Assembly (NCBI GenBank): GCA_963750495.1
Contig: CAVVQV010000017.1
Coordinates: 71,327 to 135,326 of the forward strand
Direction: 5' to 3'
DNA length: 64,000 nucleotides
DNA from: an uncultured Actinomycetota bacterium
Lineage (GTDB): Bacteria; Actinomycetota; Actinomycetes; Propionibacteriales; Nocardioidaceae
Below are positions 3,836 to 59,650 of the stretch, one piece after another. Numbering within the stretch: position 1 is the stretch's first letter; each line of letters begins with the position of its first letter. A model generated the notes under the pieces. It was not told the origin of the DNA, made no database searches, and saw only the letters and a program-made list of their open reading frames with translations. Both the position numbers and the translations under genes were made by a program.

Positions 3836-4552
3836 ATGAGCCCTCTACCTCGTGGAAGCACCGTCAGACGCGATGCCGGGCTGTACGGCTACGAGCGTGC
3901 CCTGCGCCGGGCTGGGCTGACGCCGATAGCAGGAGTCGACGAGGCCGGTCGGGGCGCCTGTGCCGGCCCGCTGGTCGCCGGCGCCGCCATCCTGCCCGAC
4001 GGAGCACGGGGAATCGTCCCGGGCCTGGCTGATTCCAAGCTGCTCACCGCCAAGGCGCGCGAACGCTGCTACGACCAGATCGTCCGCCGTGCCGAGGCGT
4101 GGTCTGTGGTCGTGATCGACTCCGCGGAGTGCGACGAGCTCGGCATGCACGTGGCCAACATCGAGGCGTTGCGCCGTGCGCTGGCCCGACTCGACAGGCG
4201 CGCCAGCTACGTCCTGACCGACGGCTTTCCCGTCGACGGTCTCGGCGTACCGGGGCTTGCCGTCTGGAAGGGTGACCGGGTGGCCGCGTGCATCGCGGCG
4301 GCGAGCGTGCTCGCAAAGGTCACTCGCGACCGCATCATGACGGAGCTGCACGACGTCTACCCGGACTACGACTTCGCGGTCCACAAGGGGTATGTCACCA
4401 AGGAGCACCAGCGGGCGCTGCAGACGCACGGTCCCTGTGCCGAGCACCGGCGCCGTTTCGTGAATGTCAGGCGGGTCGAGGGCGGCGGCAGTGAGCTCGT
4501 CCTGACCGGACAGGAACTCGAGCCGCACGAACAGGTGGAGATGTCGCGATGA
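3836..4552 (+). CDS. rnhB: ribonuclease HII
   Basis: GVDEAGRGACAGPLVAGAAIL active-site motif, DSKLLTAKARE, and conserved position after lepB. Confidence 0.93.
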   Translation: MSPLPRGSTVRRDAGLYGYERALRRAGLTPIAGVDEAGRGACAGPLVAGAAILPDGARGIVPGLADSKLLTAKARERCYDQIVRRAEAWSVVVIDSAECDELGMHVANIEALRRALARLDRRASYVLTDGFPVDGLGVPGLAVWKGDRVAACIAAASVLAKVTRDRIMTELHDVYPDYDFAVHKGYVTKEHQRALQTHGPCAEHRRRFVNVRRVEGGGSELVLTGQELEPHEQVEMSR

Positions 4553-4967: not shown

Positions 4968-5378
4968 ATGACAACGACCCACGCGCAACGCAAAGCCCTC
5001 GGTGACTTCGGTGAACGTGTCGCCGCCCGATTTCTGGGCGATCTCGGCATGGTGGTTCTCGACCGCAACTGGCGATGCCCTGCGGGGGAGATCGACATCG
5101 TGGCGCTCGACCGGCGCGAGCTGGTCATCTGCGAGGTCAAGACCCGCACCAGCCGGCGGTTCGGTACTCCGTTCGAGGCGATCACCGTCGACAAGTTGGC
5201 TCGGCTGCGTCGACTCGGCTACCAGTGGGTCGAGGCCCACGGTGCCCACGGTGCCCACGGTGCCCACGGTGCCCACGGTGCCCAGCTGCCTTTCGCCCGG
5301 ATGCGCGTCGACGTTGTTTGCGTCGACGCGAGCGCGCGCGGCGCCGCATCCATCGAGCACGTGCGGGCGGTGGCGTGA
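4968..5378 (+). CDS. yraN: YraN family protein (UPF0102, predicted endonuclease fold)
   Basis: [43 protein letters not shown] is the YraN core. It carries an internal (AHG)5 insertion from a 9-bp tandem repeat. Confidence 0.88.
5235..5285 (+). repeat. 9-bp tandem repeat (GCCCACGGT) x5.6 inside yraN
   Basis: Five perfect units at 5235-5279 plus the partial GCCCAG. In frame, it encodes [16 protein letters not shown]. Confidence 0.97.
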
Positions 5379-10171: not shown

Positions 10172-11203
10172 ATGGCCGTCGTGACCATGCGCCAGCTGCT
10201 CGAGAGCGGCGTCCACTTCGGGCACCAGACCCGTCGTTGGAACCCGAAGATGAAGCGATTCATCATGACCGAGCGCAACGGCATCTACATCATCGACCTG
10301 CAGCAGTCGCTCGCCTACATCGACCGCGGGTACGCGTTCATCAAGAGCGCGGTGGCATCCGGCGGAAACGTCTTGTTCGTCGGCACCAAGAAGCAGGCGC
10401 AAGAGGCGATCTCCGAGCAGGCCAAGCGCGTCGGCATGCCGTTCGTCAACCAGCGCTGGCTCGGCGGCATGCTCACCAACTTCCAGACGGTTCACCAGCG
10501 TTTGCAGCGCCTCAAGGAGCTCGAGGAGATCAACTTCGACGATGTGGCTGGATCCAGCCGCACCAAGAAGGAGCTCCTCCAGATGAAGCGTGAGAAGGAC
10601 AAGCTCGACCGCACGCTCGGCGGCATCCGAGACATGGCCCGGGTTCCCGCGGCCGTCTGGATCGTCGACACCAACAAGGAACACCTCGCCGTCGACGAGG
10701 CCCGCAAGCTCGGTATCCCGATCGTCGCCATCCTCGACAGCAACTGCGACCCCGACGTCGTCGACTACCCGATTCCGGGCAACGACGACGCGATCCGGTC
10801 GGTGACGCTGCTGACGCGCGTGGTCGCTGATGCCGTGGCCGAGGGGCTCATGGCCCGCGCCGGTGTCAAGAGCGGTGCCGAGGTGACCGGTGAGGAGCTG
10901 GGCGCCGAGGAGCCGCTGGCCGAATGGGAGCGCGAGCTGCTCGGCGGTCAGGCCGACGAGTCAGCCGCGCAAGCCACCGGCGTCGACACCGCAACGACCG
11001 AGACGCCCGCTGCCGAGTCGACTGGCGCTGCGGTCGAGGCGTCCGAACAGCCGGCACCCGAAGCTGTGGACGCCGTTTCCGCATCGGCTGCCGAGACCGA
11101 GACCCCTGCCGCTGAGGCGCCTGCCGCTGAGGCGCCTGCCGCTGAGGCGCCTGCCGCTGAGGCGCCTGCCGCTGAGGCGGGCGACGACAGCACGACTGCC
11201 TGA
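10172..11203 (+). CDS. rpsB: 30S ribosomal protein S2 with a long acidic Ala/Glu/Pro C-terminal tail
   Basis: [30 protein letters not shown] 10172 lies 9 nt after AAGGAGGA. The tail contains (AEAPA)5. Confidence 0.97.
11105..11179 (+). repeat. 15-bp tandem repeat (CCTGCCGCTGAGGCG) x5 in the rpsB 3-prime tail
   Basis: Five perfect units. In frame, it encodes (PAAEA)5. Confidence 0.97.
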
Positions 11204-27232: not shown

Positions 27233-28900
27233 ATGACCCGTCCCGCACGCAAGTCCCTGCGTCGCCGGGCCCTGCTCTTCACGGTCCTGGTGGCAGGCCT
27301 GGTGCTCGGACCGGCGTACGCCGCAAGCGCCCACCCGCTCGGGAACTTCACGATCAACCATTTCAACGGCCTCCGTGTCACCGAGACGGCCATCACCGAC
27401 AACGCGGTGATCGACTCGGCTGAGCTCCCCACCATCTCCGACCGCGACACGGTGGACTCCGACGGCGACGGCACCATCACCACGGCCGAGCGAGCGGCGT
27501 ACGCCGTCGACCGCTGCGGCACCTTCGCGAACCAGGTCGTCCTGACGGTCGGGGGAGCCGTGACACCGTGGACCGTGACCCGGACGAGTTACACGTATCA
27601 GCCGGGCGCCGCCGGCCTCGAGACCGGCCGGCTCGAGTGCGGACTGGAGGCGAGCGTCGACCTGACGTCGCCGGCCCGCATCACGTTCGACGACCGGTAC
27701 CTGAGCCAGCGGATCGGCTGGCGGGAGATCACCGCGGTCGGGCAGGGCGTCAACCTCGGCGAACGGGACGTGGCCACGCAGAGCATCTCCGACGAGCTCC
27801 GTGCCTACCCGAACAACCTGCTCACCTCACCACTCGACCAGCGGTCGGTGACGTTCGATGCCAAGCCCGGTGCCGACTCCGGTGGGTCACCACTGCCGAC
27901 CGTGTCCGGCGCCGGACCGTTCTCGTCCATGCTCGCCGGCGTCACGACGCACCTGGACAGTCTCGTGGGCGGCGAGCACCTCACGCTCGGGGTGGGGTTG
28001 CTCGCGGTGCTCCTGTCCTTGCTGCTCGGCGCTTCCCACGCGGCATTGCCGGGGCACGGCAAGACCCTGATGGCCGCGTACATGGTCGGTACCCGGGGCA
28101 CTCCTCGCGACGCCGTGCTCATCGGCGCCACGGTCACCCTGGCGCACACGTCGGGCGTCCTCGTGCTGGGGCTGTTGTTCAACGCGTCCGCGTCGTTCGC
28201 CGGTGAGACCGTCCTTGCCGTGCTCGGCATCATCAGCGGACTGCTCGTGGCCGCCATCGGTGTCACGTTGGTGCGCGGCGCCTGGCGACGGCACCGGGTC
28301 AGCAGTGTCGACGAGCTGTGGGGTCACGGCCACGGCCACGGCCACGGCCACGGTCACGGCCACGGCCACGGTCACGGCCATGAGCAGGGGCACCCGGCCG
28401 CATCGGGACCCGACGATCGCCCGTCCGCCACCGGCGACGCCACCGAGCAGAGCTCCTCGGACACGCTCGTGCTGACGTCAGCGCCCGTCGGTGGGCCTGG
28501 TCCCGACCACGCGCATGACCACTCCCACGACCACGCCCGCGACCACGCCCACGCGAAGGGCGAGCAGGGGTTCCGCCGGATGACGCTGGTCGGCATGGGA
28601 CTGGCCGGCGGGCTGGTGCCGAGCCCTTCCGCGCTGATCGTGTTGCTCGGTGCGATCGCCCTTGGCCGGACAGTCTTCGGCATCGGTCTGGTGCTGGCCT
28701 ACGGCATCGGGATGGCCGCGACCCTCACCACGATCGGCTACCTGTTCGCCAAGCTGCCCGGTCGGTTGTCCCGGCTGCGGCGGTTCTCCACCCACCGCTG
28801 GCTGACCCGCCTCGCCACGGCCGGGCCGGTGCTCACGGCCGGCCTGGTTCTCGTCGTGGGCCTGGCACTGGCCTGGCGCAGCGCGAGCCCACTGGTCTGA
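27233..28900 (+). CDS. NicO/RcnA-type metal permease fused to an N-terminal extracytoplasmic domain
   Basis: Signal peptide ending AYAASA|HPLGNFTINHF. EF-hand-like loop DSDGDGTITTAE. NicO signature LLGASHAALPGHGKTLMAAYMVG. His-rich loop (GH)10...DHAHDHSHDHARDHAH. ATG 27233 lies 1 nt after the TPR stop. The ORF-track start at 26837 overlaps the TPR gene. Confidence 0.85.
   Translation: MTRPARKSLRRRALLFTVLVAGLVLGPAYAASAHPLGNFTINHFNGLRVTETAITDNAVIDSAELPTISDRDTVDSDGDGTITTAERAAYAVDRCGTFANQVVLTVGGAVTPWTVTRTSYTYQPGAAGLETGRLECGLEASVDLTSPARITFDDRYLSQRIGWREITAVGQGVNLGERDVATQSISDELRAYPNNLLTSPLDQRSVTFDAKPGADSGGSPLPTVSGAGPFSSMLAGVTTHLDSLVGGEHLTLGVGLLAVLLSLLLGASHAALPGHGKTLMAAYMVGTRGTPRDAVLIGATVTLAHTSGVLVLGLLFNASASFAGETVLAVLGIISGLLVAAIGVTLVRGAWRRHRVSSVDELWGHGHGHGHGHGHGHGHGHGHEQGHPAASGPDDRPSATGDATEQSSSDTLVLTSAPVGGPGPDHAHDHSHDHARDHAHAKGEQGFRRMTLVGMGLAGGLVPSPSALIVLLGAIALGRTVFGIGLVLAYGIGMAATLTTIGYLFAKLPGRLSRLRRFSTHRWLTRLATAGPVLTAGLVLVVGLALAWRSASPLV
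28322..28381 (+). repeat. in-frame GGYCAC microsatellite encoding (Gly-His)10
   Basis: GGT CAC (GGC CAC)4 GGT CAC (GGC CAC)2 GGT CAC GGC CAT inside the NicO cytoplasmic loop. Confidence 0.95.
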
Positions 28901-32615: not shown

Positions 32616-35048
32616 ATGATCGGCATCGTCGTGGTCTCGCACAGCCGAGCCCTCGCCGATGCAGCCGTCGGGCTCGCTCGCGAGATGGTCGACGCCGAGA
32701 CTGCACCGGCGATCGTCGTGGCGGCCGGCCTGGACGAGACGACGTTCGGTACCGACGCGACTGCGGTGTCGGCCGCGATCGAGCAGGTGGATTCACCCGA
32801 CGGTGTCCTCGTGCTGCTCGACCTCGGCAGTGCTGTCCTCAGTGGCGAGATGGCCCTGGAGTTCCTCGACCCGGACCTGGCCGGTCGCGTCCGGCTGTCC
32901 AGCGCTCCACTGGTCGAAGGTCTCGTCGCCGCCGTGGTGCTGGCGTCCACCGGTGCCGAGCTCGACGCCGTGGTGGCTGAGGCCGAGTCGGGGTTGTTGG
33001 CGAAGCAGTCCCACCTCGGCTCCGGCGGCGAGGCCGCCGCGCCGTCGGCAGCCGGGAGTGAGTCTGCGCGCCCGGACGCCACCACCGAGGTCACTGTGTC
33101 CAACCCGCACGGCCTCCATGCCCGCCCGGCTGCCAAGGTCGTCACACTCGTCCGCAGTTTCGACGCGACCGTGACACTGCGCAACCTGGACACCGGGAAA
33201 GGGCCGGTCCCTGCGGGCAGCCTGAGTGCGGTGGCCACGCTGGACGCCCGCCTGGGGCATCGGCTCGAGGTGTCGGCCTCGGGGGCACAGGCCGCTGATG
33301 CGCTGCGCGCCTTCGAGGAGCTGGCGGAGCGGGACTTCGACGACGTACCGGTGCCACCCTCGTCGCCGTCAAAGGTTGACGGCCCGGCGGCGGGGAGTGG
33401 TCTCGATCTGGCGATGGGGCCTGCTCTGGTCCTGAGCGCGACGGTCGACATATCCGCCTACGAGGCGGGGGACGGTCAGGCTGAGCTCGCCCGCTCGGCC
33501 CAGGCGGTCGATGCGGTCCGGGCTCGTCTCGAGGAGCTGCAACGGCGCACGGCCGAGACGTCCGGACCCGAGGCAGCCGACATCTTCGTCGCCCAGACGG
33601 CCCTGCTCGACGACCCCGAGATCACCGCGCCGGTCGACGACGCGATCGCGGCGGGAACACCGGCGCCGCAGGCCTGGCGTGACCGGCTGGACGCCGTGGC
33701 AGCACAGTTCGAAGGCCTCGCCGACGCCTACCAGCGCGAACGCGCGGCAGACGTGCGCAGCGTGCAGGCGAGTGTGCTGCGGGCGCTGACCGGTGAGGCG
33801 GAGACCGAGCTCGACACCGGTGGCGAGCCCGTGATCCTTGTCGTGGACGAGCTCGACGCTGCCACGGCCGCCTCGATCGACGCCGACGCCGTGGCAGGAG
33901 TGGTGACGATCGCGCGTGGTACCACGGGGCACGGCGTCATCGTGGCCTCCTCGCGCGGTATCCCGCTGATGACCGGTGCCGGTGCGGATGCCGCCGGGGT
34001 CCGTACCGGACAGCTGGTTTCCTTCGACGCTCGCAGCCACAGCTTCGTTGCCGACGTGAGTGCGGAGGAGCGGCGACGTTTCCCTGATCTCGTGGCCGAG
34101 CGGCGGCGCGAGCGAGAGCAGGTCGTGCAGGCGGCCCAGACGCCGGCGGTGACCCGCGACGGGACTGCGATCCCGGTGTTCGCGAACCTCGCCTCGGTCG
34201 CCGACGCGGACAGCGCGAGCGCCAACGGGGCCGAGGGCTCGGGCCTGGTCCGAACCGAGGTCCTGTTCGGTGACCGTTCGGTGGCACCGACGGTCGAGGA
34301 GCAGGTGGAGATGTTCCTGGCTCTGGCGAAGTCGTTGGGTGGCGCGCCGTTGACGATCCGGACGTGGGACATCGGCGGCGACAAGCCGCTGCCGTTCCTC
34401 GCCCAGGCTGCTGAGGCCAACCCGTTCCTGGGCGAGCGCGGGCTGCGGGTGTTCCGACGTCGGCCGGACTTGTTGCGGGACCAGCTCATCGCGATCTGGC
34501 AGGCCGCGCGTCAGACGCCGCTGCGGGTCATGTTCCCGATGGTCACCGAGCCGGCCGAGGTGGCGTTCGCGCGGGACCTGCTCGCGGCCGCTCGAGGAGA
34601 CGTCACCGGAGTCGACCTCTCGGTCGGCATCATGGTCGAGGTACCCGCTGCCGCCCTGACGGTGGAGTCCCTGGCCGCCGACCTCGACTTCGTCAGCATC
34701 GGGACCAACGACCTGACCCAGTACACGATGGCCGTCGACCGCGGCAACGACGCCGTGGCCGACCTCGCCGACCCGATGGGCCCGGCCGTGCTCCGCCTCA
34801 TCGACCGCGTGTGCCGCCGGCGCCCGCCGGGCGTCGAGGTGGCCGTCTGCGGTGACCTGGCGAGTCGCCCAGGCGTCATACCCCTGCTGCTCGGCCTGGG
34901 GGTCGACGAGCTCAGCTGTACGCCGCCCCGGGTGCCGGAGGTCAAGCAGGCGGTCCGGGCCACCGACCTCACCTCGGCCCGGGAGCTGGCGGCCGCCTGC
35001 CTGGCCGCCCCCGATGCCCCCTCCGTCCGCCGCCTCCTGCTTCGTTGA
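32616..35048 (+). CDS. dhaM: DhaM phosphoryl-donor subunit: EIIA(Man)-like + HPr + full-length PTS Enzyme I fusion
   Basis: MIGIVVVSHS (EIIA-Man His). NPHGLHARPAAKVV (HPr His). GTTGHGVIVASSRGIP (EI phospho-His). C-terminal PEP-binding barrel motifs GLVRTEVLF, IRTWDIGGDK, IMVEVPAA, FVSIGTNDLTQY and the catalytic Cys in VAVCGDLAS. Confidence 0.88.
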   Translation: MIGIVVVSHSRALADAAVGLAREMVDAETAPAIVVAAGLDETTFGTDATAVSAAIEQVDSPDGVLVLLDLGSAVLSGEMALEFLDPDLAGRVRLSSAPLVEGLVAAVVLASTGAELDAVVAEAESGLLAKQSHLGSGGEAAAPSAAGSESARPDATTEVTVSNPHGLHARPAAKVVTLVRSFDATVTLRNLDTGKGPVPAGSLSAVATLDARLGHRLEVSASGAQAADALRAFEELAERDFDDVPVPPSSPSKVDGPAAGSGLDLAMGPALVLSATVDISAYEAGDGQAELARSAQAVDAVRARLEELQRRTAETSGPEAADIFVAQTALLDDPEITAPVDDAIAAGTPAPQAWRDRLDAVAAQFEGLADAYQRERAADVRSVQASVLRALTGEAETELDTGGEPVILVVDELDAATAASIDADAVAGVVTIARGTTGHGVIVASSRGIPLMTGAGADAAGVRTGQLVSFDARSHSFVADVSAEERRRFPDLVAERRREREQVVQAAQTPAVTRDGTAIPVFANLASVADADSASANGAEGSGLVRTEVLFGDRSVAPTVEEQVEMFLALAKSLGGAPLTIRTWDIGGDKPLPFLAQAAEANPFLGERGLRVFRRRPDLLRDQLIAIWQAARQTPLRVMFPMVTEPAEVAFARDLLAAARGDVTGVDLSVGIMVEVPAAALTVESLAADLDFVSIGTNDLTQYTMAVDRGNDAVADLADPMGPAVLRLIDRVCRRRPPGVEVAVCGDLASRPGVIPLLLGLGVDELSCTPPRVPEVKQAVRATDLTSARELAAACLAAPDAPSVRRLLLR

Positions 35049-35110
35049 ACCGTGAGTTGTGGTCCTTTGAACCGTGAGTTGTGGTCCCTTGAACCGTGAG
35101 TTGTGGCGCT
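35045..35110 (+). repeat. 22-bp tandem repeat family, locus A (3 units)
   Basis: TTGAACCGTGAGTTGTGGTCCT / ...GTCCC / ...GCGCT, head to tail. The dhaM stop TGA (35046-35048) is inside unit 1. Confidence 0.97.
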
Positions 35111-35180
35111 GGATCGACGGTCAGCGGTCAGCTGCTGTGTCAGTAGCAGCCGGGTGGGCAGGCGGAGGTCCTGCGACGGC

Positions 35181-36566
35181 TCAGTGGCCACCGACGAGTG
35201 GTGACATCACGCGGGCGATGCGCGACGGCCGGCCGGTGCGACCCTCCTCGTAGTCTGCGAGTGACATGGCGCGCAGGCCAGCGTTGACACCGAGCCACCG
35301 CAGCGGCTCGGGCTCCCATCGGCGCGAGTGATGGTCGACCCACGGCAGCTCGACGAGATCGGAAGGCACCTCCCGGATCAGGTCCGCCAAGGTCCTTCCC
35401 GCCAGGTTGGTCGTCGTGACTCCGTCACCCACGTAGCCACCGGCCCAGCCGATGCCGGTCGTCCGGTCCAGACCGACAGACGCCATCCAGTCCCGCGGTA
35501 TGCCGAGGGGGCCACCCCAGGTATGGGAGTACCGCACGTCGCCCAGAGCCGGAAAGAGCTCGGCAAGCGTGGCACGCAGCTCGGCGAACACATGTTCGGC
35601 CCGGTCGTACTCGGGCGACACCGACGAAGCGAAGTGATACGGCGCCCCGCGTCCCCCGAAGACGATGCGGTCGTCGGCCGTGCGCTGGCCGTAGATGATC
35701 AGGTGGCGGTGGTCGGTGAAGGTCGGCGCATCGGCCAGGCCGATCGCGTCCCACGTGGTAGTAGGCAACGGCTCCGTGGCGACCACCAACGAGTAGACCG
35801 GCACCACCTGGCGTCGACGACCGGGAAGACCCGGCGTGTATCCCTCGGTCGCCCGGACGACGTACTCGGCACGGACGTTGCCCCGTACCGTCGTCACCAG
35901 GCTCGGCGCGAGTGCTGTCACTGCGGTCTGCTCGTAGATCACGACGCCGCGTCGCTCAGCTGCGGCGGCGAGACCGCGGACGAGCTTGGCCGGGTGGATC
36001 CGTGCGCAGTGCGGCGTGTACGTCGCACCGAGTGCACCCGCGGCTGCGGCCATGTCGGCGGTCTCACTCGCGGACAGCAGCCGCACGTCATCGACGGTGT
36101 CACCCCAGCCATGCGCCTCGTCGACTTCGTGCCGGGCGCGTTCGAGCTGGGCCTTGGTCCGGGCGAAGGCAACCGTGCCTCCGCGGTGGAAGCCACAGTC
36201 GATGCCCTCCTCGTCGGCGACCCGCTCGATCTCACCGATGCTGGCCCGCATCGCTGCTACCTGGGCGTTGGCAGCCTCGGGAGATGAGCCGGCCAACCGG
36301 GCCAACTTGGAGCGGGAGCTCGGGAACAGCGCGGACGCCCACCCGCCGTTGCGGCCCGAGGCGCCGAAGCCGGCGATGTCCCGCTCGAGCACAGCGATGC
36401 GAACGCTGGGGTCAGCGACCGCCAGGTAGTAGGCGGTCCACAGTCCGGTGAACCCCGCGCCCACGATCGCGACGTCGACATCCAGGTCGGCGTCGAGGGC
36501 GGGGCGGGGGAGGAGTGGGTCCCCGCAGGTGGCATGCCAGAGGGACAGATCGGCGTACGGGGCCAC
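35181..36566 (-). CDS. FAD-dependent oxidoreductase (DadA/PuuB-like amine oxidoreductase)
   Basis: N-terminal dinucleotide fold DVAIVGAGFTGLWTAYYL. The overall DAO-family layout and polyamine-gene context suggest a gamma-glutamylputrescine/amine oxidase type. Confidence 0.8.
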   Translation of the reverse strand: MAPYADLSLWHATCGDPLLPRPALDADLDVDVAIVGAGFTGLWTAYYLAVADPSVRIAVLERDIAGFGASGRNGGWASALFPSSRSKLARLAGSSPEAANAQVAAMRASIGEIERVADEEGIDCGFHRGGTVAFARTKAQLERARHEVDEAHGWGDTVDDVRLLSASETADMAAAAGALGATYTPHCARIHPAKLVRGLAAAAERRGVVIYEQTAVTALAPSLVTTVRGNVRAEYVVRATEGYTPGLPGRRRQVVPVYSLVVATEPLPTTTWDAIGLADAPTFTDHRHLIIYGQRTADDRIVFGGRGAPYHFASSVSPEYDRAEHVFAELRATLAELFPALGDVRYSHTWGGPLGIPRDWMASVGLDRTTGIGWAGGYVGDGVTTTNLAGRTLADLIREVPSDLVELPWVDHHSRRWEPEPLRWLGVNAGLRAMSLADYEEGRTGRPSRIARVMSPLVGGH

Positions 36567-48340: not shown

Positions 48341-48360
48341 TCTCGACAGGCTCGACCAGC

Positions 48361-48408
48361 GGGGTGGGCTTGATCAGCGGGGTGGGCTTGATCAGCGGGT
48401 GGGCTTGA

Positions 48409-48413
<5 letters not shown>
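48361..48413. repeat. 18-bp tandem repeat x3 (GGGGTGGGCTTGATCAGC) between convergent genes
   Basis: Units at 48361-48378 and 48379-48396, and a 17-nt unit at 48397-48413. A degenerate fourth copy (GGCTCGACCAGC) lies just upstream. The gcdH stop (48409-48411) lies in the last unit. Confidence 0.95.
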
Positions 48414-49646
<1,233 letters not shown>

Positions 49647-53024: not shown

Positions 53025-53839
53025 GTACGCCGGGGTTCCGCCTTTCGCGCGGCAGCACCTGGGCACTGCGCGGCCTGGTCGCGCTCGTGTTGGCGTTCAT
53101 CTACGTGCCGCTCGGCGTCGTCGTGATCAACTCGTTCAACTCCGACAAGACGTTCTCGTGGCCGCCCCGCAGCTTCACCCTCGAGTGGTGGCGGCGGGCC
53201 AAGGACAGCACGGGAATGATCAACGCGCTCCAGGAGTCGGTGAAGATCGGGCTCCTCGCCACGGCGATCGCGCTCGTGCTCGGCACGCTCGCGGCCTTCG
53301 CGTTGACGCGGCACCGCTTCTTCGGGCGGGAGGCCGTGTCGCTGCTGATCGTGCTGCCGATCGCCCTGCCGGGCATCGTCACGGGCATCGCCCTGAGCAA
53401 CGCGTTCACCACGATCCTCGGTGTCGGACTGTCGGTCTGGTCGCTCGTCATCGCGCATGCGACCTTCTGCATCGTGGTCGTGTTCAACAACGTGGTGGCC
53501 AGGCTGCGACGGTTGGGCGGGAACATCGAGGAAGCCTCGATGGACCTCGGGGCGACCCGGCTGACGACCTTCCGCCTCATCACGCTGCCCAACCTCGGCG
53601 GGGCGCTGGTCGCCGGCGCGCTGCTGGCCTTTGCGTTGTCGTTCGACGAGATCGTCGTCACGACGTTCACCGCACCGGCTGACGTCCAGACGCTACCGCT
53701 GTGGATCTACAACAACCTGCTCAGCCGGCAGCAGGCGCCCATCGTCAACGTCACCGCGGCGGCGCTGATCCTGGTGTCGGTGCTGCCGATCTACCTCTCG
53801 CAGAAGATCTCCGGCGACGAGTCCGCCGGCCGGCTCTGA
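53021..53839 (+). CDS. ABC transporter permease, second system
   Basis: EAA loop EEASMDLGATRLTTFRLITLPN. 4-nt overlap with the upstream permease gene. Confidence 0.9.
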   Translation: MSTPGFRLSRGSTWALRGLVALVLAFIYVPLGVVVINSFNSDKTFSWPPRSFTLEWWRRAKDSTGMINALQESVKIGLLATAIALVLGTLAAFALTRHRFFGREAVSLLIVLPIALPGIVTGIALSNAFTTILGVGLSVWSLVIAHATFCIVVVFNNVVARLRRLGGNIEEASMDLGATRLTTFRLITLPNLGGALVAGALLAFALSFDEIVVTTFTAPADVQTLPLWIYNNLLSRQQAPIVNVTAAALILVSVLPIYLSQKISGDESAGRL

Positions 53840-53884
53840 CCCCCCGCCCCGCGCTGACCCCCGTCCCGCGCTGCCCCTCTCGCC

Positions 53885-53910
53885 GGGCAGCCCCCGTCGC
53901 CGGGCTGCCC
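53885..53910 (+). terminator. GC-rich hairpin after the permease gene
   Basis: GGGCAGCCC-n8-GGGCTGCCC (9-bp stem), flanked by two 19-nt direct repeats CCCCCGTCCCGCGCTGCCC (53858-53876 and 53908-53926). Confidence 0.4.
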
Positions 53911-53939
53911 CCGTCCCGCGCTGCCCACGGTGGCTCTCC

Positions 53940-53987
53940 GTGTTTGTCTTGTGCGGTGTTTGTCTTGTGCGGTGTTTGTCTTGTGAA
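53940..53987 (+). repeat. 16-bp tandem repeat x3 (GTGTTTGTCTTGTGCG), low GC
   Basis: Units at 53940-53955, 53956-53971 and 53972-53987. The last unit ends in AA instead of CG. Confidence 0.95.
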
Positions 53988-55879: not shown

Positions 55880-57079
55880 ATGAAGATTTTGCTAGTTGGT
55901 GCGGGGGGCGTGGGGGCGGCGTTCGCTGCGATCGCAGCGCGGCGGGACTTCTTCGAACGCGTGGTCATCGCCGACTACGACCTGTCCCGCGCCGAGCGGG
56001 CGGCCGCGGACGACGACAGATTCGACGCAGCCCAGGTCGACGCCTCGGACGCAGCATCGATCGAGGCACTGGTGCGCGCGCACCAGATCACGCACGTCAT
56101 GAACGCAGTTGACCCGCGCTTCGTGATGCCGATCTTCAACGGTGCGTACGCCGGGGGAGCGGACTACCTCGACATGGCGATGAGCTTGTCCCGGCCGCAC
56201 CCCGAGGCCCCATACGAGCAGACTGGGGTGATGCTCGGCGACGAGCAGTTCGCGGTCGCCGGCGACTGGGAGGCGGCCGGGCGCCTGGCACTGGTCGGCA
56301 TCGGCGTCGAGCCTGGCCTGTCGGACGTGTTCGCGCGGTACGCCGCCGACCATCTCTTCAGCGAGATCGACGAGCTCGGCGTACGCGACGGTGCCAACCT
56401 CACCGTCGACGGCTACGACTTTGCGCCGTCCTTCTCGATCTGGACGACGATCGAGGAATGCCTCAACCCGCCGGTCGTGTGGGAGAAAGACCGTGGCTGG
56501 TTCACGACCGAGCCGTTCTCCGAGCCGGAGGTCTTCGAGTTTCCGGAGGGCATCGGGCCGGTCGAGTGCGTGAACGTCGAGCACGAAGAGGTGCTCCTCA
56601 TGCCACGCTGGGTCGAGGCCAAGCGGGCGACGTTCAAGTACGGGCTCGGGGACGAGTTCATCGATGTGCTGAAGGTTCTGCACAAGCTCGGGCTCGACAA
56701 GACCGACAAGCTCCGGGTCGGCGGCGTCGAGGTCAGCCCGCGCGACGTGGTGGCCGCGAGCCTGCCTGACCCGGCCACGCTGGGCGACAAGATGCGGGGC
56801 AAGACCTGCGCGGGCTTGTTCGTCACGGGCAGGGGCAAGGACGGGCAGCCGCGGGCCACCTACCTGTATCACGTGGTCGACAACGAGTGGTCGATGCGCG
56901 AGTACGGCCACCAGTGCGTGGTCTGGCAGACCGCGGTCAACCCGGTCGTGGCGCTCGAGCTCCTGGCGGACGGCACCTGGTCGGGTGCCGGCGTGCTCGG
57001 CCCGGAGGCGTTCGACGCCGTACCCTTCCTCGACCTGCTGACCGCCTACGGATCCCCCTGGTCCCTCGAAGACCGTTGA
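55880..57079 (+). CDS. saccharopine dehydrogenase family oxidoreductase
   Basis: N-terminal Rossmann fold MKILLVGAGGVGAAFAAIA and family-typical length. ATG 55880 follows GGAAAGG. The TGA stop lies inside the first 22-bp repeat unit. Confidence 0.8.
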   Translation: MKILLVGAGGVGAAFAAIAARRDFFERVVIADYDLSRAERAAADDDRFDAAQVDASDAASIEALVRAHQITHVMNAVDPRFVMPIFNGAYAGGADYLDMAMSLSRPHPEAPYEQTGVMLGDEQFAVAGDWEAAGRLALVGIGVEPGLSDVFARYAADHLFSEIDELGVRDGANLTVDGYDFAPSFSIWTTIEECLNPPVVWEKDRGWFTTEPFSEPEVFEFPEGIGPVECVNVEHEEVLLMPRWVEAKRATFKYGLGDEFIDVLKVLHKLGLDKTDKLRVGGVEVSPRDVVAASLPDPATLGDKMRGKTCAGLFVTGRGKDGQPRATYLYHVVDNEWSMREYGHQCVVWQTAVNPVVALELLADGTWSGAGVLGPEAFDAVPFLDLLTAYGSPWSLEDR

Positions 57080-57163
57080 ACCGTGAGTTGTGGCTCCTTC
57101 AACCGTGAGTTGTGACTCCTTCAACCGTGAGTTGTGGCTCCTCGAACCGTGAGTTGTGGTGCT
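57076..57163 (+). repeat. 22-bp tandem repeat family, locus B (4 units)
   Basis: TTGAACCGTGAGTTGTGGCTCC / TTCAACCGTGAGTTGTGACTCC / TTCAACCGTGAGTTGTGGCTCC / TCGAACCGTGAGTTGTGGTGCT. The stop TGA at 57077-57079 is in unit 1. Confidence 0.97.
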
Positions 57164-57183
57164 TCGTCACACGGAAGGTCGGA

Positions 57184-58250
57184 ATGCTGAGAACACGTCT
57201 TGGTTGGCTTCTCGACGTGAGCACCTCTCAAGATCCCGAAGTCCGCCCGCTGTCCCTGCTCGATTTCGTCGACATTCCGTCAGGGCTGTCGGCAACCGAG
57301 GCGATGGCGCGGACCGTCACGACGGCCCAGGCAGCGGACCGCCTGGGCTACAAGCGCTTTTGGATCTCTGAGCATCACAACTTCGAAGGACTGGCGAGCA
57401 GCTCGCCAGAGATCCTGATCAGCCACGTGGCCTCGGCCACTCGGAGCATCCGGTAGGAGCCGCCGGGATCATGCTGCCGAACCACGCGCCGCTCAAGGTC
57501 GCCGAGTGGTTCAAGACTCTCGAGATGCTGCACCCGGGTCGCATCGACCTCGGCCTGGGGAGGGCACCGGGCACTGACCAGGTCACGGCATTCGCGCTAC
57601 GGCGCTCGCGCGAGTCAGCGGGTGCTCCTGACTTTCCGGAGCAGGCTGCCGAGCTGATCGCGTTCCTCACCGACGAATGGCCGGACGAGCATCCCTTCGC
57701 CACGGTGCGAGCCACGCCGGTCGTGGATGGTCAGCCCGAACTGCTGATGCTGGGATCGAGCGGTTGGGGATCGGCGTTCGCGGCCGTGAACGGGATGACC
57801 TCGGTCTTCGCACACCACATGAGCCCCGACCTCGCGGTCGACGCGCTTCAGGCGTACCGGCGAGACTTCCGACCGTCCGAGCTGGGTAGTGCGCCGCGCG
57901 TCATCGTGTCCGCTCTCGCGCTGGCCTCGCACGATCCCGATGTGGTGGCCGACTTCCGCGCCGGCTGGACCCTGGGTATGCGCTATATCCGCAGCGGTGC
58001 GAAGCGTAGGCCGACGCCCGAGGAGATCCGCGAGTTCCGGACGTCGTCGAAGTACGCCGAGATCGAACCGACGCTGCGGGGGCGTGTCTTCGCGGGGTCG
58101 CCCGACGTGGTTGCCCGCGACCTGGCGGCGCTCGCAGATGCTGCCGGCGCCGATGAACTGACGCTGGTCGCGCCGACGCCCGACCACGAAGCCAAGCTGG
58201 CCTCGCTCGAACTCCTGGCCAAGCAGTGGGGCCTGGAGCCGCAAGTCTGA
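57184..58250 (+). pseudogene. LLM-class (luciferase-like) flavin-dependent oxidoreductase, frameshifted
   Basis: N-part (57184-57456: PLSLLDFVDIPSG...[14 protein letters not shown]...SATRSIR*) and C-part (57471-58250: [34 protein letters not shown]...) are in different frames. Restoring one G at 57451-57453 gives [18 protein letters not shown]. Confidence 0.85.
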
Positions 58251-58268
58251 CGTCCATACTGAGCTTTC

Positions 58269-58408
58269 GGCTCGAGGGGCCACAACTCACGGCTCGAGGG
58301 GCCACAACTCACGGTTCGAGGGGCCACAACTCACGGTTCGAGGGGCCACAACTCACGGTTCGAGGGGCCACAACTCACGGTTCAAGGAGCCACAACTCAC
58401 GGTTCAAC
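58269..58408 (-). repeat. 22-bp tandem repeat family, locus C (6 units plus an 8-nt partial), reverse orientation
   Basis: Plus strand: GGCTCGAGGGGCCACAACTCAC x2, GGTTCGAGGGGCCACAACTCAC x3, GGTTCAAGGAGCCACAACTCAC, then GGTTCAAC. On the minus strand the array begins 10 nt after the TAG of the 58418-59650 gene. Confidence 0.97.
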
Positions 58409-58417
58409 GAAGGCGGG

Positions 58418-59650
58418 CTAGGAGTCGAGGGCGGTCGTGATGGCTGAGGCGAGGTCGTCGACCTCGGAGTCGGTCATCACGAAGGCGGGGGAGACCTGGA
58501 TGCCGCCGGCACCGACCGCGCGGGTGGCCACGCCGTGTGACCGCAGCATCTTGGCCAGCGCCATCGCCTCGGCGGGATCGCTGAGCTGGATCGCCGCCAG
58601 CGCACCGGTTCCACACCGCACCTCGACGACGCGTTCGTGATCCGCCAGCGGCTTGAGCCGCGCAGCCAGCGACGACTCGAGGCGAGCCGACTCGTCCAAC
58701 AGGTTCTCCCGCTCGAGGATGTCGAGGTTGGCCAGCGCCACCGCCGCCGCGGCGGCATGTCCGGAGTACGTGTAGCCGTGCCGCCACCACACCCCGGCGT
58801 CCGGCTGGAAGAACGGCTCGGACACCTTCGGCGCGATCAGCACCGCACCCATAGGCAGGTAGCCCGAGGTCAGACCCTTGGCTGTGGTGATCATGTCGGG
58901 CTCGAGCCCGAACCGACCGCTTGCGAACCAGGCGCCGCCGATGCGCCCGTAGCCCGTCACGACCTCGTCGGCCACGAACAGCACGTCGTACTCCGTGCAC
59001 ACCTTGCGGACGTCGGCGAGATAACCGTCCGGCGGTGGGTAGACGCCGCCCGCGCCGATCACGGGCTCGCAGAAGAACGCCGCGACGTTCTCCGGCCCGA
59101 GCCGCTCGATCGTCGTACGCAGGTCTCCGGCGTCATCCCACGCGACCGTGGCGCTGTCGTGCACCAGGTCGCCGTAACCCTCGCGGTTACCCGGAATCCC
59201 GGCGATCGACGTCCCGGCGTAGTGCATGCCGTGGTAGGCCTTCTGCCGTCCGATCAGGTAGCGCCGCTGGGGCTGACCCATCTCGTTCCAGTACCGACGG
59301 GCCAGCTTCGCCGCGGTGTCGACCGAGTCCGAGCCACCCGACGTGAAGAACACCTTCGAGCCGGGCACCGGTGCGATCCCTGCGAGCCGTTCCGCGAGCG
59401 CCACCGTCGGCTCGGTCACGTAGTCGCCGAACGTGCTGTACGCCGCCATCTTGCTCATCTGCTCGGCAGCGACCTCGCCGAGCTCGGCACGGCCATGTCC
59501 GACGTTGGTGAACCAGAGCCCCGCCGTGGCGTCGAGGTAACGGTTGCCCTCGGGGTCGAAGACGTACGTACCCTCGCCGCGCGCGATGACGAACTCGCCG
59601 TTGCGTTCGACGGCTCCCATGTCCGAGAACGGATGCCATAGCGCGCCCAT
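58418..59650 (-). CDS. class III (omega) aminotransferase
   Basis: MGALWHPFSDMG..., TNVGHGR, ADEVVTGYGRIGG, and the PLP-lysine region ITTAKGLTSGYLPMG. ATG 59650 follows AAGGAG. Confidence 0.88.
   Translation of the reverse strand: MGALWHPFSDMGAVERNGEFVIARGEGTYVFDPEGNRYLDATAGLWFTNVGHGRAELGEVAAEQMSKMAAYSTFGDYVTEPTVALAERLAGIAPVPGSKVFFTSGGSDSVDTAAKLARRYWNEMGQPQRRYLIGRQKAYHGMHYAGTSIAGIPGNREGYGDLVHDSATVAWDDAGDLRTTIERLGPENVAAFFCEPVIGAGGVYPPPDGYLADVRKVCTEYDVLFVADEVVTGYGRIGGAWFASGRFGLEPDMITTAKGLTSGYLPMGAVLIAPKVSEPFFQPDAGVWWRHGYTYSGHAAAAAVALANLDILERENLLDESARLESSLAARLKPLADHERVVEVRCGTGALAAIQLSDPAEAMALAKMLRSHGVATRAVGAGGIQVSPAFVMTDSEVDDLASAITTALDS

Follow-up and report, generated by a model that had tools for sequence, protein, structure and literature searches.

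We analyzed a 64,000-nucleotide stretch of contig CAVVQV010000017.1 from an uncultured Nocardioidaceae bacterium (hereafter, the window), in which an initial annotation, made from the letters alone, had singled out three short tandem arrays of a 22-bp unit at the 3′ ends of genes. The largest of these, array C, at 58268-58408, belongs to an interspersed minisatellite family that is genus-level in scope and is carried by uncultured Nocardioidaceae. The family is real and apparently undescribed; its known members come from uncultured soil Nocardioidaceae, and 54 of 67 arrays start at, or within about 20 nt of, a stop codon on the same strand, which the repeat itself often supplies. Our preferred reading, held tentatively and at somewhat less than even odds, is that the arrays serve as gene-end boundaries whose core would be recognized by a lineage-specific factor. 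That they are a selfish or neutral repeat is almost as likely.

Tandem Repeats Finder (TRF) reports 22-bp arrays in the window at 35045-35106 (array A; 2.8 copies, 97% matches), 57079-57159 (array B; 3.7 copies) and 58268-58405 (array C; 6.3 copies, 97%), and both TRF and the sequence bear out the earlier description of units running head to tail without spacers. The core AACCGTGAGTTGTG (14 nt, up to two mismatches allowed) has 13 matches in the window, every one inside the three arrays, where shuffled sequence leads one to expect 0.34; none of 100 shuffles reaches 13. Within array C, the first five cores begin AACC and the last AGCC, and the linkers are mostly GCCCCTCG. The initial annotation was also correct that arrays A and C share the 17-nt junction CTTCGTTGAACCGTGAG and that array C begins 10 nt after the TAG at 58418-58420. 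The arrays and their leaders are as follows.

58268-58408, minus strand: array C, 6.3 units of the 22-bp repeat, whose sense strand is the minus strand
58409-58420, minus strand: leader of array C, consisting of the native aminotransferase TAG (58418-58420) and then CCCGCCTTCG, running into TTGAACC
57074-57160, plus strand: array B, CGTTG followed by 3.7 units
35036-35106, plus strand: array A, a leader ending in CTGCTTCGTTG followed by 2.8 units

To take a census of the family, we searched a species-representative genome collection with an exact two-unit pattern (an exact 11-mer pair). This matched 55 loci, nearly all in metagenome-assembled genomes (MAGs) of the Nocardioidaceae/Propionibacteriales (about nine MAGs, uncultured); the window's own genome is not among these 55. 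With the window included, the sample holds 67 arrays of at least two units in 36 orthologous groups, and the best-sampled MAG, CAWFGV01, contributes 26 loci with at least 33 arrays. Single units are rare, with five lone cores in three of the 55 loci. Orthologous arrays are present in independent assemblies of different projects, as the styles of contig names show (contig_N in the MFD MAGs, k141 in OTE_14/JANLYC, NODE in the others), which disposes of the concern, raised at the outset, that the arrays might vanish on re-assembly. One matching contig (JBBQZM010000048.1, locus L035) comes from a Burkholderiales bin; since it carries the orthologue of array A and shares 87-95% identity with the Nocardioidaceae phosphotransferase system (PTS) locus, it is very likely mis-binned.

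This wider sample reveals features that lay beyond the view of the initial annotation, namely a leader ending in TCGTTG, pairs of arrays bracketing genes, conservation at orthologous loci, concerted evolution of units and a wider superfamily of 22-bp arrays. The anatomy is polar: a C-rich, G-poor leader ending in TCGTTG is followed by a variable number of 15-nt cores, A[A/G]CCGTGAGTTGTGG, joined by 7-nt variable linkers, and the array ends raggedly at its 3′ side, just past a core. The 5′ boundary is sharp: in 29-32 of 32 groups TCGTTG stands ahead of the first core, and the C-rich, G-poor tract lies further upstream. Across 190 units, core positions 1-15 are almost invariant, as are positions outside the search pattern (A1, C3, G15, T20 and G22); positions 16-19 are variable and tend to be array-specific. 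AACC is the usual first unit, with AGCC units becoming more frequent toward the tail. The consensus unit has seven G and five C in the sense strand and the reverse in the antisense strand, which is free of stop codons, as had been claimed, and can be read as an open reading frame (ORF) beginning TTHGSRSHNSRFKEPQLTVQG. The accompanying claim that the sense strand closes all three frames within two units needs correction: the two TGAs of the unit (positions 6 and 21) share one frame, so that a stop in every frame is reached only ~52 nt into the array, with the first TGA of the third unit.

A stop codon of a same-strand ORF lies at -8 to +21 nt from the first core in 54 of the 67 arrays, compared with 4% when arrays are placed at random in intergenic sequence of the same loci. 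The proposal of a dispersed family with a conserved core, gene-end positions and sense-strand stops is thus upheld in other genomes, where a core with no bias to the 3′ ends of coding sequences (CDSs) would have told against it. The stronger statement that every array sits at a CDS 3′ end in the sense orientation is true of the three window arrays and is too strong for the family as a whole. Among the 54 arrays, the stop offset is -1 in 27 (the TGA of the junction), -8 in three and +4 to +21 in 24; the element's own TGA is therefore the stop codon of the upstream gene in 27 of 67 arrays (~40%). Arrays A and B belong to this class, the upstream stop being created by the element itself within cgtTGAacc. 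For the saccharopine dehydrogenase gene, this TGA lies at 57077-57079, within the first array B junction; the DhaM-HPr-EI (PTS) fusion gene ends at the TGA at 35046-35048 of array A. The genes concerned are listed here.

58418-59650, minus strand: class III aminotransferase CDS, its 3′ end adjoining array C; Pfam Aminotran_3 is found on orthologues (the start coordinate is that of the initial annotation; orthologues are called at 410 aa)
55880-57079, plus strand: saccharopine dehydrogenase CDS, 399 aa, identical to P0002, terminating in the first junction of array B
57471-58250, plus strand: luciferase-like monooxygenase gene, between the inward-pointing arrays B and C
32616-35048, plus strand: DhaM-HPr-EI multiphosphoryl transfer protein CDS, 810 aa, terminating in the first junction of array A
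35181-36566, minus strand: convergent 461-aa ORF, its stop 75 nt past the tail of array A

The arrays also favor particular kinds of intergenic gap. Array-bearing gaps are convergent in 24 cases, tandem in 18 and divergent in two, against a background of 39, 149 and 33, respectively. In 18 arrays the last core falls within 13 nt of the stop codon of a convergent gene, which means that the array makes up essentially the whole intergenic gap. Downstream starts are 39-70 nt or more distant, and it is only the upstream stop that is overlapped. The upstream genes have no functional theme in common, and the flanks are chromosomal housekeeping genes. The exceptions to the 3′-end rule are L002/L050 and L049+ (antisense between tandem genes), L036-/L054- (between divergent RidA and mreB) and L019+ (beside and facing a gene start).

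Comparison of orthologous loci, also suggested by the initial annotation, shows that arrays stay at the same gene ends while the number of units varies. They are retained through ~15-25% DNA divergence, and a syntenic stretch of ~37 kb that the window shares with three other genomes holds the same three arrays and no others, without gain or loss. Over 43 orthologous pairs, identity is 93.6% in the core, 73% in the linker and 84.5% in the upstream CDS, the core estimates being partly inflated because the arrays were found with an exact 11-mer pair. At array C, the orthologues in L033, L048, L060 and L061 lack 14 nt relative to the window and use the junction TGA as their stop; the window copy keeps its native TAG and a 13-nt leader. 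A small deletion can therefore convert the post-stop state into the stop-supplying one. L061, among the relatives reached via protein homologues, carries both arrays B and C.

At the level of individual units, the arrays of one genome resemble each other. At nine variable positions, different loci within one genome match at 7.00, and orthologous arrays in different genomes at 6.36. Several loci in each of a set of three genomes share the double variant GCGGG, and the variant core GTTCCGG is present in both arrays of L178. Since genome-specific unit variants recur across loci, these patterns indicate that units have been exchanged or regenerated between loci, by ectopic conversion or by regeneration. 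Two contigs of MAG CAWFGV01 (L006 and L031) have the same flanking genes and a 99.4% identical inner segment, and differ in one array by five versus four units. This suggests strain heterogeneity or redundant contigs, and it demonstrates that copy number is quick to change.

Relatives without arrays show what the same gene ends look like in their absence. In L056 (92% protein identity), L062, L057 and L059, native stops stand exactly at the position of the array TGA. A search for a decayed array in L056 found two TGA[A/G]CCGT motifs 46 nt apart and nothing significant by nhmmer. In the cultured Nocardioides deserti, the TAG of ndk is followed directly by a hairpin terminator and then by mreB; array-bearing genomes have the order ndk-[array]-RidA(-)-[array]-mreB, with an array in place of the hairpin. 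At the PTS gene end, L178 (73% protein identity) carries an array at the corresponding junction as well as a second one bracketing TrmO. All four loci examined in this way coincide with breaks in synteny, where the small genes present vary (LLM, CHAP or GH3 at one, RidA at another, TrmO and CorA at a third, and glyoxalase at the fourth). At the array-less PTS locus L177, the PTS fusion gene and a convergent DAO-type oxidoreductase gene overlap by 17 nt (4477-4493), with no spacer.

From the alternation of conserved blocks with free positions, the retention of the 22-bp period in diverged families (described below), the invariant first junction and the long orthologous retention, the core is probably bound by a lineage-specific factor. 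Such a factor would occupy one core per 22 bp, about two turns of the helix, and the arrays would persist as hairpin-less boundaries of transcription units, acting at gene ends and around inserted genes by factor-dependent termination or by insulation. A boundary role is suggested by the placement of the arrays, the unfoldedness of their RNA, the ndk comparison and the bracketing of inserted genes, the second and fourth of which are taken up below. The orientation bias would mainly reflect the fact that stop codons are supplied by the sense strand only. Two of the roles first proposed for the arrays, a protein landing pad and a small insertional repeat targeting gene ends, are both viable.

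Several points weigh against a boundary role, in addition to the inflation of the core estimates. The sense bias in tandem gaps is largely trivial, because only the sense strand can supply the stop for the 27 arrays that do so; without these, tandem-gap orientation is ~3-6 sense to 2 antisense, which is no real bias, and with no residual bias a strand-specific (RNA or polar) function is not required. The array-less state has a hairpin terminator at one locus (ndk) only, and at the PTS locus the convergent genes of an array-less relative simply overlap. Decay of arrays can occur, as in L060, where array B is down to ~1.5 units, and the core has drifted in some lineages (GAGTTGCGG in array C of L060, GTTCCGG in L178), which fits drive or homogenization as well as it fits selection. 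The lineage-specific factor is itself hypothetical.

Many of these points would be expected of a selfish or neutral dispersed minisatellite without host function, copied or converted into permissive sites, and we consider this explanation nearly as credible as a boundary role. Such a repeat would survive only in 3′ gaps where it spares genes, especially convergent ones, and in the sense orientation where it clips a gene end; its homogeneity would follow from slippage and ectopic gene conversion, or from an unknown mobilizing enzyme that needs the core. The distribution of sites is the one expected from purifying selection against hits in promoters and coding sequences, the stop-supply filter accounts for most of the orientation bias, and genome-specific unit signatures, together with a core that drifts in concert across loci, are what homogenization would leave behind. 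The decay of some arrays, the lack of a theme among upstream genes and the existence of close relatives (88-92% protein identity) that are array-less at the same loci and apparently fine also agree with it. However, selfish elements usually turn over, and these arrays are kept at orthologous loci across species, without gain or loss in the ~37 kb of synteny. The strong difference in constraint between core and linker, and a first junction, TCGTTG, that is invariant even where non-coding, likewise count against a neutral repeat, as does the near absence of solo units. Nor did we find a transposase or recombinase near or inside pairs of arrays, or visible target-site duplications at array junctions.

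The pairs themselves suggest a different explanation, in which the arrays would mark the inverted termini of a gene-capture or cassette system, or else its recombination scars or hot-spots, with a bracketed gene as the insert and solitary arrays as solo ends. Two arrays lie 380-1130 bp apart at ten loci, which represent seven independent sites. Nine of the ten, with spacings of 500-1130 bp, point inward around exactly one gene, far in excess of the ~0.4 chance pairs that we estimate by hand for one genome (assuming ~35 arrays in ~4 Mb); L178 provides a further case outside these. The outer (leader) ends are sharp and the inner ends ragged, the two leaders of the pair share 11-12 extra nt in L036 and L019, and three of the five exceptions to the 3′-end rule belong to pairs. 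RidA and its two arrays stand between ndk and mreB, which are adjacent genes in N. deserti, and the synteny breakpoints at all four loci examined are also in keeping with gene capture. Yet 47 of 67 arrays are solitary, and the bracketed genes are unrelated (the luciferase-like monooxygenase of the window, AbiEi_4-like, DUF3097, HAD, HIT, RidA and RF-1/ArfB-like), with no recombinase or transposase among the genes inside pairs. No cargo is seen in two contexts, L006 and L031 sharing their flanks as redundant contigs would and transposed copies would not. Inverted sites are not the product of simple site-specific integration, the junctions have neither target duplications nor TG...CA termini, and the pairs are stable across species. 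On this evidence we regard a cassette system as quite unlikely. The narrower idea of a mobile element defined by its cargo was rejected, the inner segments of pairs being unrelated genes. Tn7/Mu-type ends were set aside too: inverted pairs exist, but there are no TG...CA tips, duplications or transposase between them, and most arrays stand alone.

An action at the RNA level is similarly improbable in our judgment. The sense transcript could offer an unstructured 3′ untranslated platform for an RNA-binding protein or ribonuclease, or the antisense transcript (C/A-rich, G-poor and unstructured) could be a Rho-loading site that blocks convergent or antisense transcription into the upstream gene. 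The arrays are indeed the least foldable RNA locally, with a lowest minimum free energy of -14.7 versus -19.1 for random windows, and single-sequence folds do not differ significantly from shuffles in either strand (z = +0.46 sense, -0.98 antisense), in agreement with the earlier remark that no strong hairpin is present. The enrichment at convergent junctions, the start of arrays right where translation ends and a stop-free antisense consensus with more C than G also favor such a role. On the other hand, nothing at the RNA level obviously accounts for the 22-nt period or for the spacing of the two conserved blocks (9 and 13 nt), we find neither covariation nor structure, and some arrays lie where no transcript is expected to enter, such as L036- upstream of RidA. 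As for Rho, the array RNA is unstructured, as in a rut site, which spans at least 70-80 nt of C-rich, G-poor RNA without structure; the sense composition (G7/C5) does not qualify, and the antisense (C7/G5) is a weak fit, its excess of C over G being modest in the main family. The sole dyad is a 5-bp junction stem, complete in 33 of 190 sense and 123 of 190 antisense junctions; we rejected this stem (GGYYC-NNN-GRRCC) as a structure because it is not kept from family to family and composition accounts for its antisense preference. The arrays lack the GC-rich hairpin and U tract of an intrinsic terminator. A comparison of hairpin terminators downstream of arrays with those at control 3′ ends was uninformative, control ends scoring -20.1 and random windows -19.1, which makes the test powerless in GC-rich DNA. 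Rfam yielded nothing at gathering score for the window and seven loci, only chance-level matches up to E 5, none of them in arrays.

Plasmid-type iterons, CRISPR-like repeats, hairpins of the repetitive extragenic palindromic (REP) kind and an assembly artifact have next to no chance of being the explanation: the likeness to iterons that had been pointed out is sound for the geometry (17-22-bp direct repeats, about two helical turns) and breaks down for the context, the arrays being chromosomal, after housekeeping genes, with no rep gene or origin and no match in plasmid, phage or viral-contig searches, while units that abut without spacers and without hairpins exclude CRISPR arrays and REPs, and recurrence at orthologous loci in independent assemblies speaks against an artifact. 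Likenesses to DnaA boxes, Ter sites, Chi, Tn7 ends and the elemental pause consensus were also considered and dropped, the partial matches being of chance quality.

Among known repeats, the closest in kind are the mycobacterial interspersed repetitive units (MIRU), reportedly described by Supply et al. in 1997 and 2000. Both are actinobacterial, dispersed, intergenic head-to-tail minisatellites with tens of loci and variable copy number, are oriented with flanking genes, overlap the upstream stop codon and have no proven function. However, MIRU units are 46-101 bp long, with short ORFs that, within operons, link the stop codon of one gene to the start codon of the next, whereas the present unit is 22 bp, not a multiple of three, and the element closes all frames on one strand and prefers convergent gaps. 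It also differs in its fixed TCGTTG leader, its inverted bracketing pairs and its host, Nocardioidaceae rather than Mycobacterium.

A second likeness is to the REPs of proteobacteria, including bacterial interspersed mosaic elements (BIMEs) and the REPIN-RAYT system (REP doublets forming hairpins and REP-associated tyrosine transposases). Those elements, too, are extragenic, sit at gene 3′ ends and in convergent gaps as our arrays do, are homogeneous within a genome and divergent between lineages, and have some copies at orthologous sites. Host roles have been proposed for them in mRNA 3′ ends and in the binding of gyrase and IHF. REPs are imperfect palindromes that form hairpins and occur as inverted doublets, whereas the present units are hairpin-less, strictly direct repeats, and no RAYT-type gene was found among the inner genes of pairs, with ~8 kb around each array covered rather than whole genomes. 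Because the element shows neither the unit size and coding potential of MIRU nor the hairpin of REPs, it is best described as a dispersed polar minisatellite that is MIRU- or REP-like in kind and fails the defining features of both.

Other comparisons are more remote. The BOX elements of Streptococcus pneumoniae, boxA-(boxB)n-boxC, are likewise modular and intergenic, with fixed ends and a variable number of tandem internal units, but their units are 45-59 nt, have predicted stable folds and are not anchored to stop codons, and the phylum is different. The Sal box/TTF-I system of Pol I and mTERF are functional analogies only: they use tandem, asymmetric, hairpin-less, orientation-dependent protein-bound sites downstream of a transcription unit and are eukaryotic or organellar. 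The Beggiatoaceae have many dispersed sets of short intergenic direct repeats, TAACTGA, that contain a stop codon and for which a post-transcriptional regulatory role has been proposed without proof (PMC4679880). Their unit is 7 nt and the host gammaproteobacterial, and the abstract does not describe abutment to stop codons or orthologous conservation. Literature searches on the core sequence and on 22-bp tandem repeats of Nocardioides returned nothing relevant.

The 22-bp architecture extends beyond the main family. A loose three-unit pattern, CCGNGNNNNGTGG at 22-nt spacing, matched 112 contigs in metagenomes, soil among the sources, and uncovered sister families with the units ATCCGCGGGTTGTGGTTGCGCG, A[AG]CCGTGCGTTGTGGCGGGCCG and CGCCGKG..GAGTGGTCRCTCG, whose arrays, where flanks exist, start -11 to +28 nt from a same-strand stop. 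Diverged 22-bp arrays, e.g., ATCCGTGGCGTGTGGTTGCGCG and ATCCGCGCCACGTGGTTGCGCC, are also present in MAG CAWATY01, at L021 (1129-1262 and 1784-1972) and L032 (92-239 and 248-392); each locus has two arrays on opposite strands, and those of L032 directly abut, convergent and 8 bp apart. A diverged array at the same orthologous locus as one of the main family is clear only for L178, at the PTS gene end; other cross-matches are not positionally equivalent. A more ambitious proposal, which we consider unlikely on balance, is that the arrays are the cis-sites of an undescribed hairpin-less, factor-dependent gene-boundary system, a prokaryotic counterpart of the polar terminators of Sal-box/TTF-I or mTERF; under it, site and factor would have co-evolved across the Nocardioidaceae, as the diverged families suggest. 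In the same loose scan, the low-GC contigs L072, L075, L082, L110 and L127, as well as L083/L155/L166 and L070/L136, carry recurrent 22-bp units such as AGCCGCGATAGGTGGGACGTTT and TGCCGTGAAAGGTGGATGGCTA. Some of these matches are probably unrelated 22-mers picked up by the loose pattern, and the units may represent unrelated families or distant analogues in other phyla.

Canonical U-tract terminators are often missing from high-GC actinobacteria, and there is continuing debate about the way in which transcription units end in these bacteria. The element described here is a concrete candidate for factor-dependent definition of gene ends, as it is hairpin-less, sits at stop codons, fills convergent gaps and brackets inserted genes. 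Even if it is merely selfish, it is a clear case of an interspersed minisatellite that provides host genes with stop codons and evolves in concert at fixed orthologous loci. The arrays are also a practical source of variable-number tandem repeat (VNTR) markers, and since many short-read metagenome contigs terminate inside an array, they may account for contig breaks in assemblies of soil Nocardioidaceae.

Some observations concern the neighboring genes of the window. The luciferase-like monooxygenase ORF between arrays B and C (57471-58250) encodes only 259 aa and is N-terminally short relative to its 345-354-aa orthologues in L048 and L061; the 300 nt upstream (window 57160-57470) still resemble the N-terminal coding sequence of the orthologues, which points to a frameshift, in either a pseudogene or a sequencing error. 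At the position of the 461-aa ORF convergent to array A, syntenic relatives are annotated with a DAO/Thi4 oxidoreductase, which makes the ORF a candidate equivalent by position. Between the array A tail and the convergent oxidoreductase, L030 (958-1468), L035 and L045 carry a glyoxalase-family gene of 128-132 aa that is missing from the window (35107-35180).

The window is also unusually rich in other tandem repeats, with 59 TRF rows. Perfect or near-perfect repeats with periods of 9, 15, 6, 6 and 18 bp (5235-5284, 11105-11179, 28325-28380, 49024-49070 and 48349-48415, respectively) are probably coding repeats, as their periods are multiples of three. Repeats of 17, 16 and 14 bp were rejected as members of the 22-bp family, each being confined to a single locus among the loci compared. 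Two of these periods occur downstream of an ABC permease gene, whose TGA (53837-53839) is followed by about five C-rich 17-bp repeats (53841-53926) and then by 2.9 perfect copies of the 16-bp unit GTGTTTGTCTTGTGCG (53940-53985). In L060 and L061, a palindrome lies upstream of the aldehyde dehydrogenase gene, and the 16-bp unit appears to be a local tandem duplication of its left arm.

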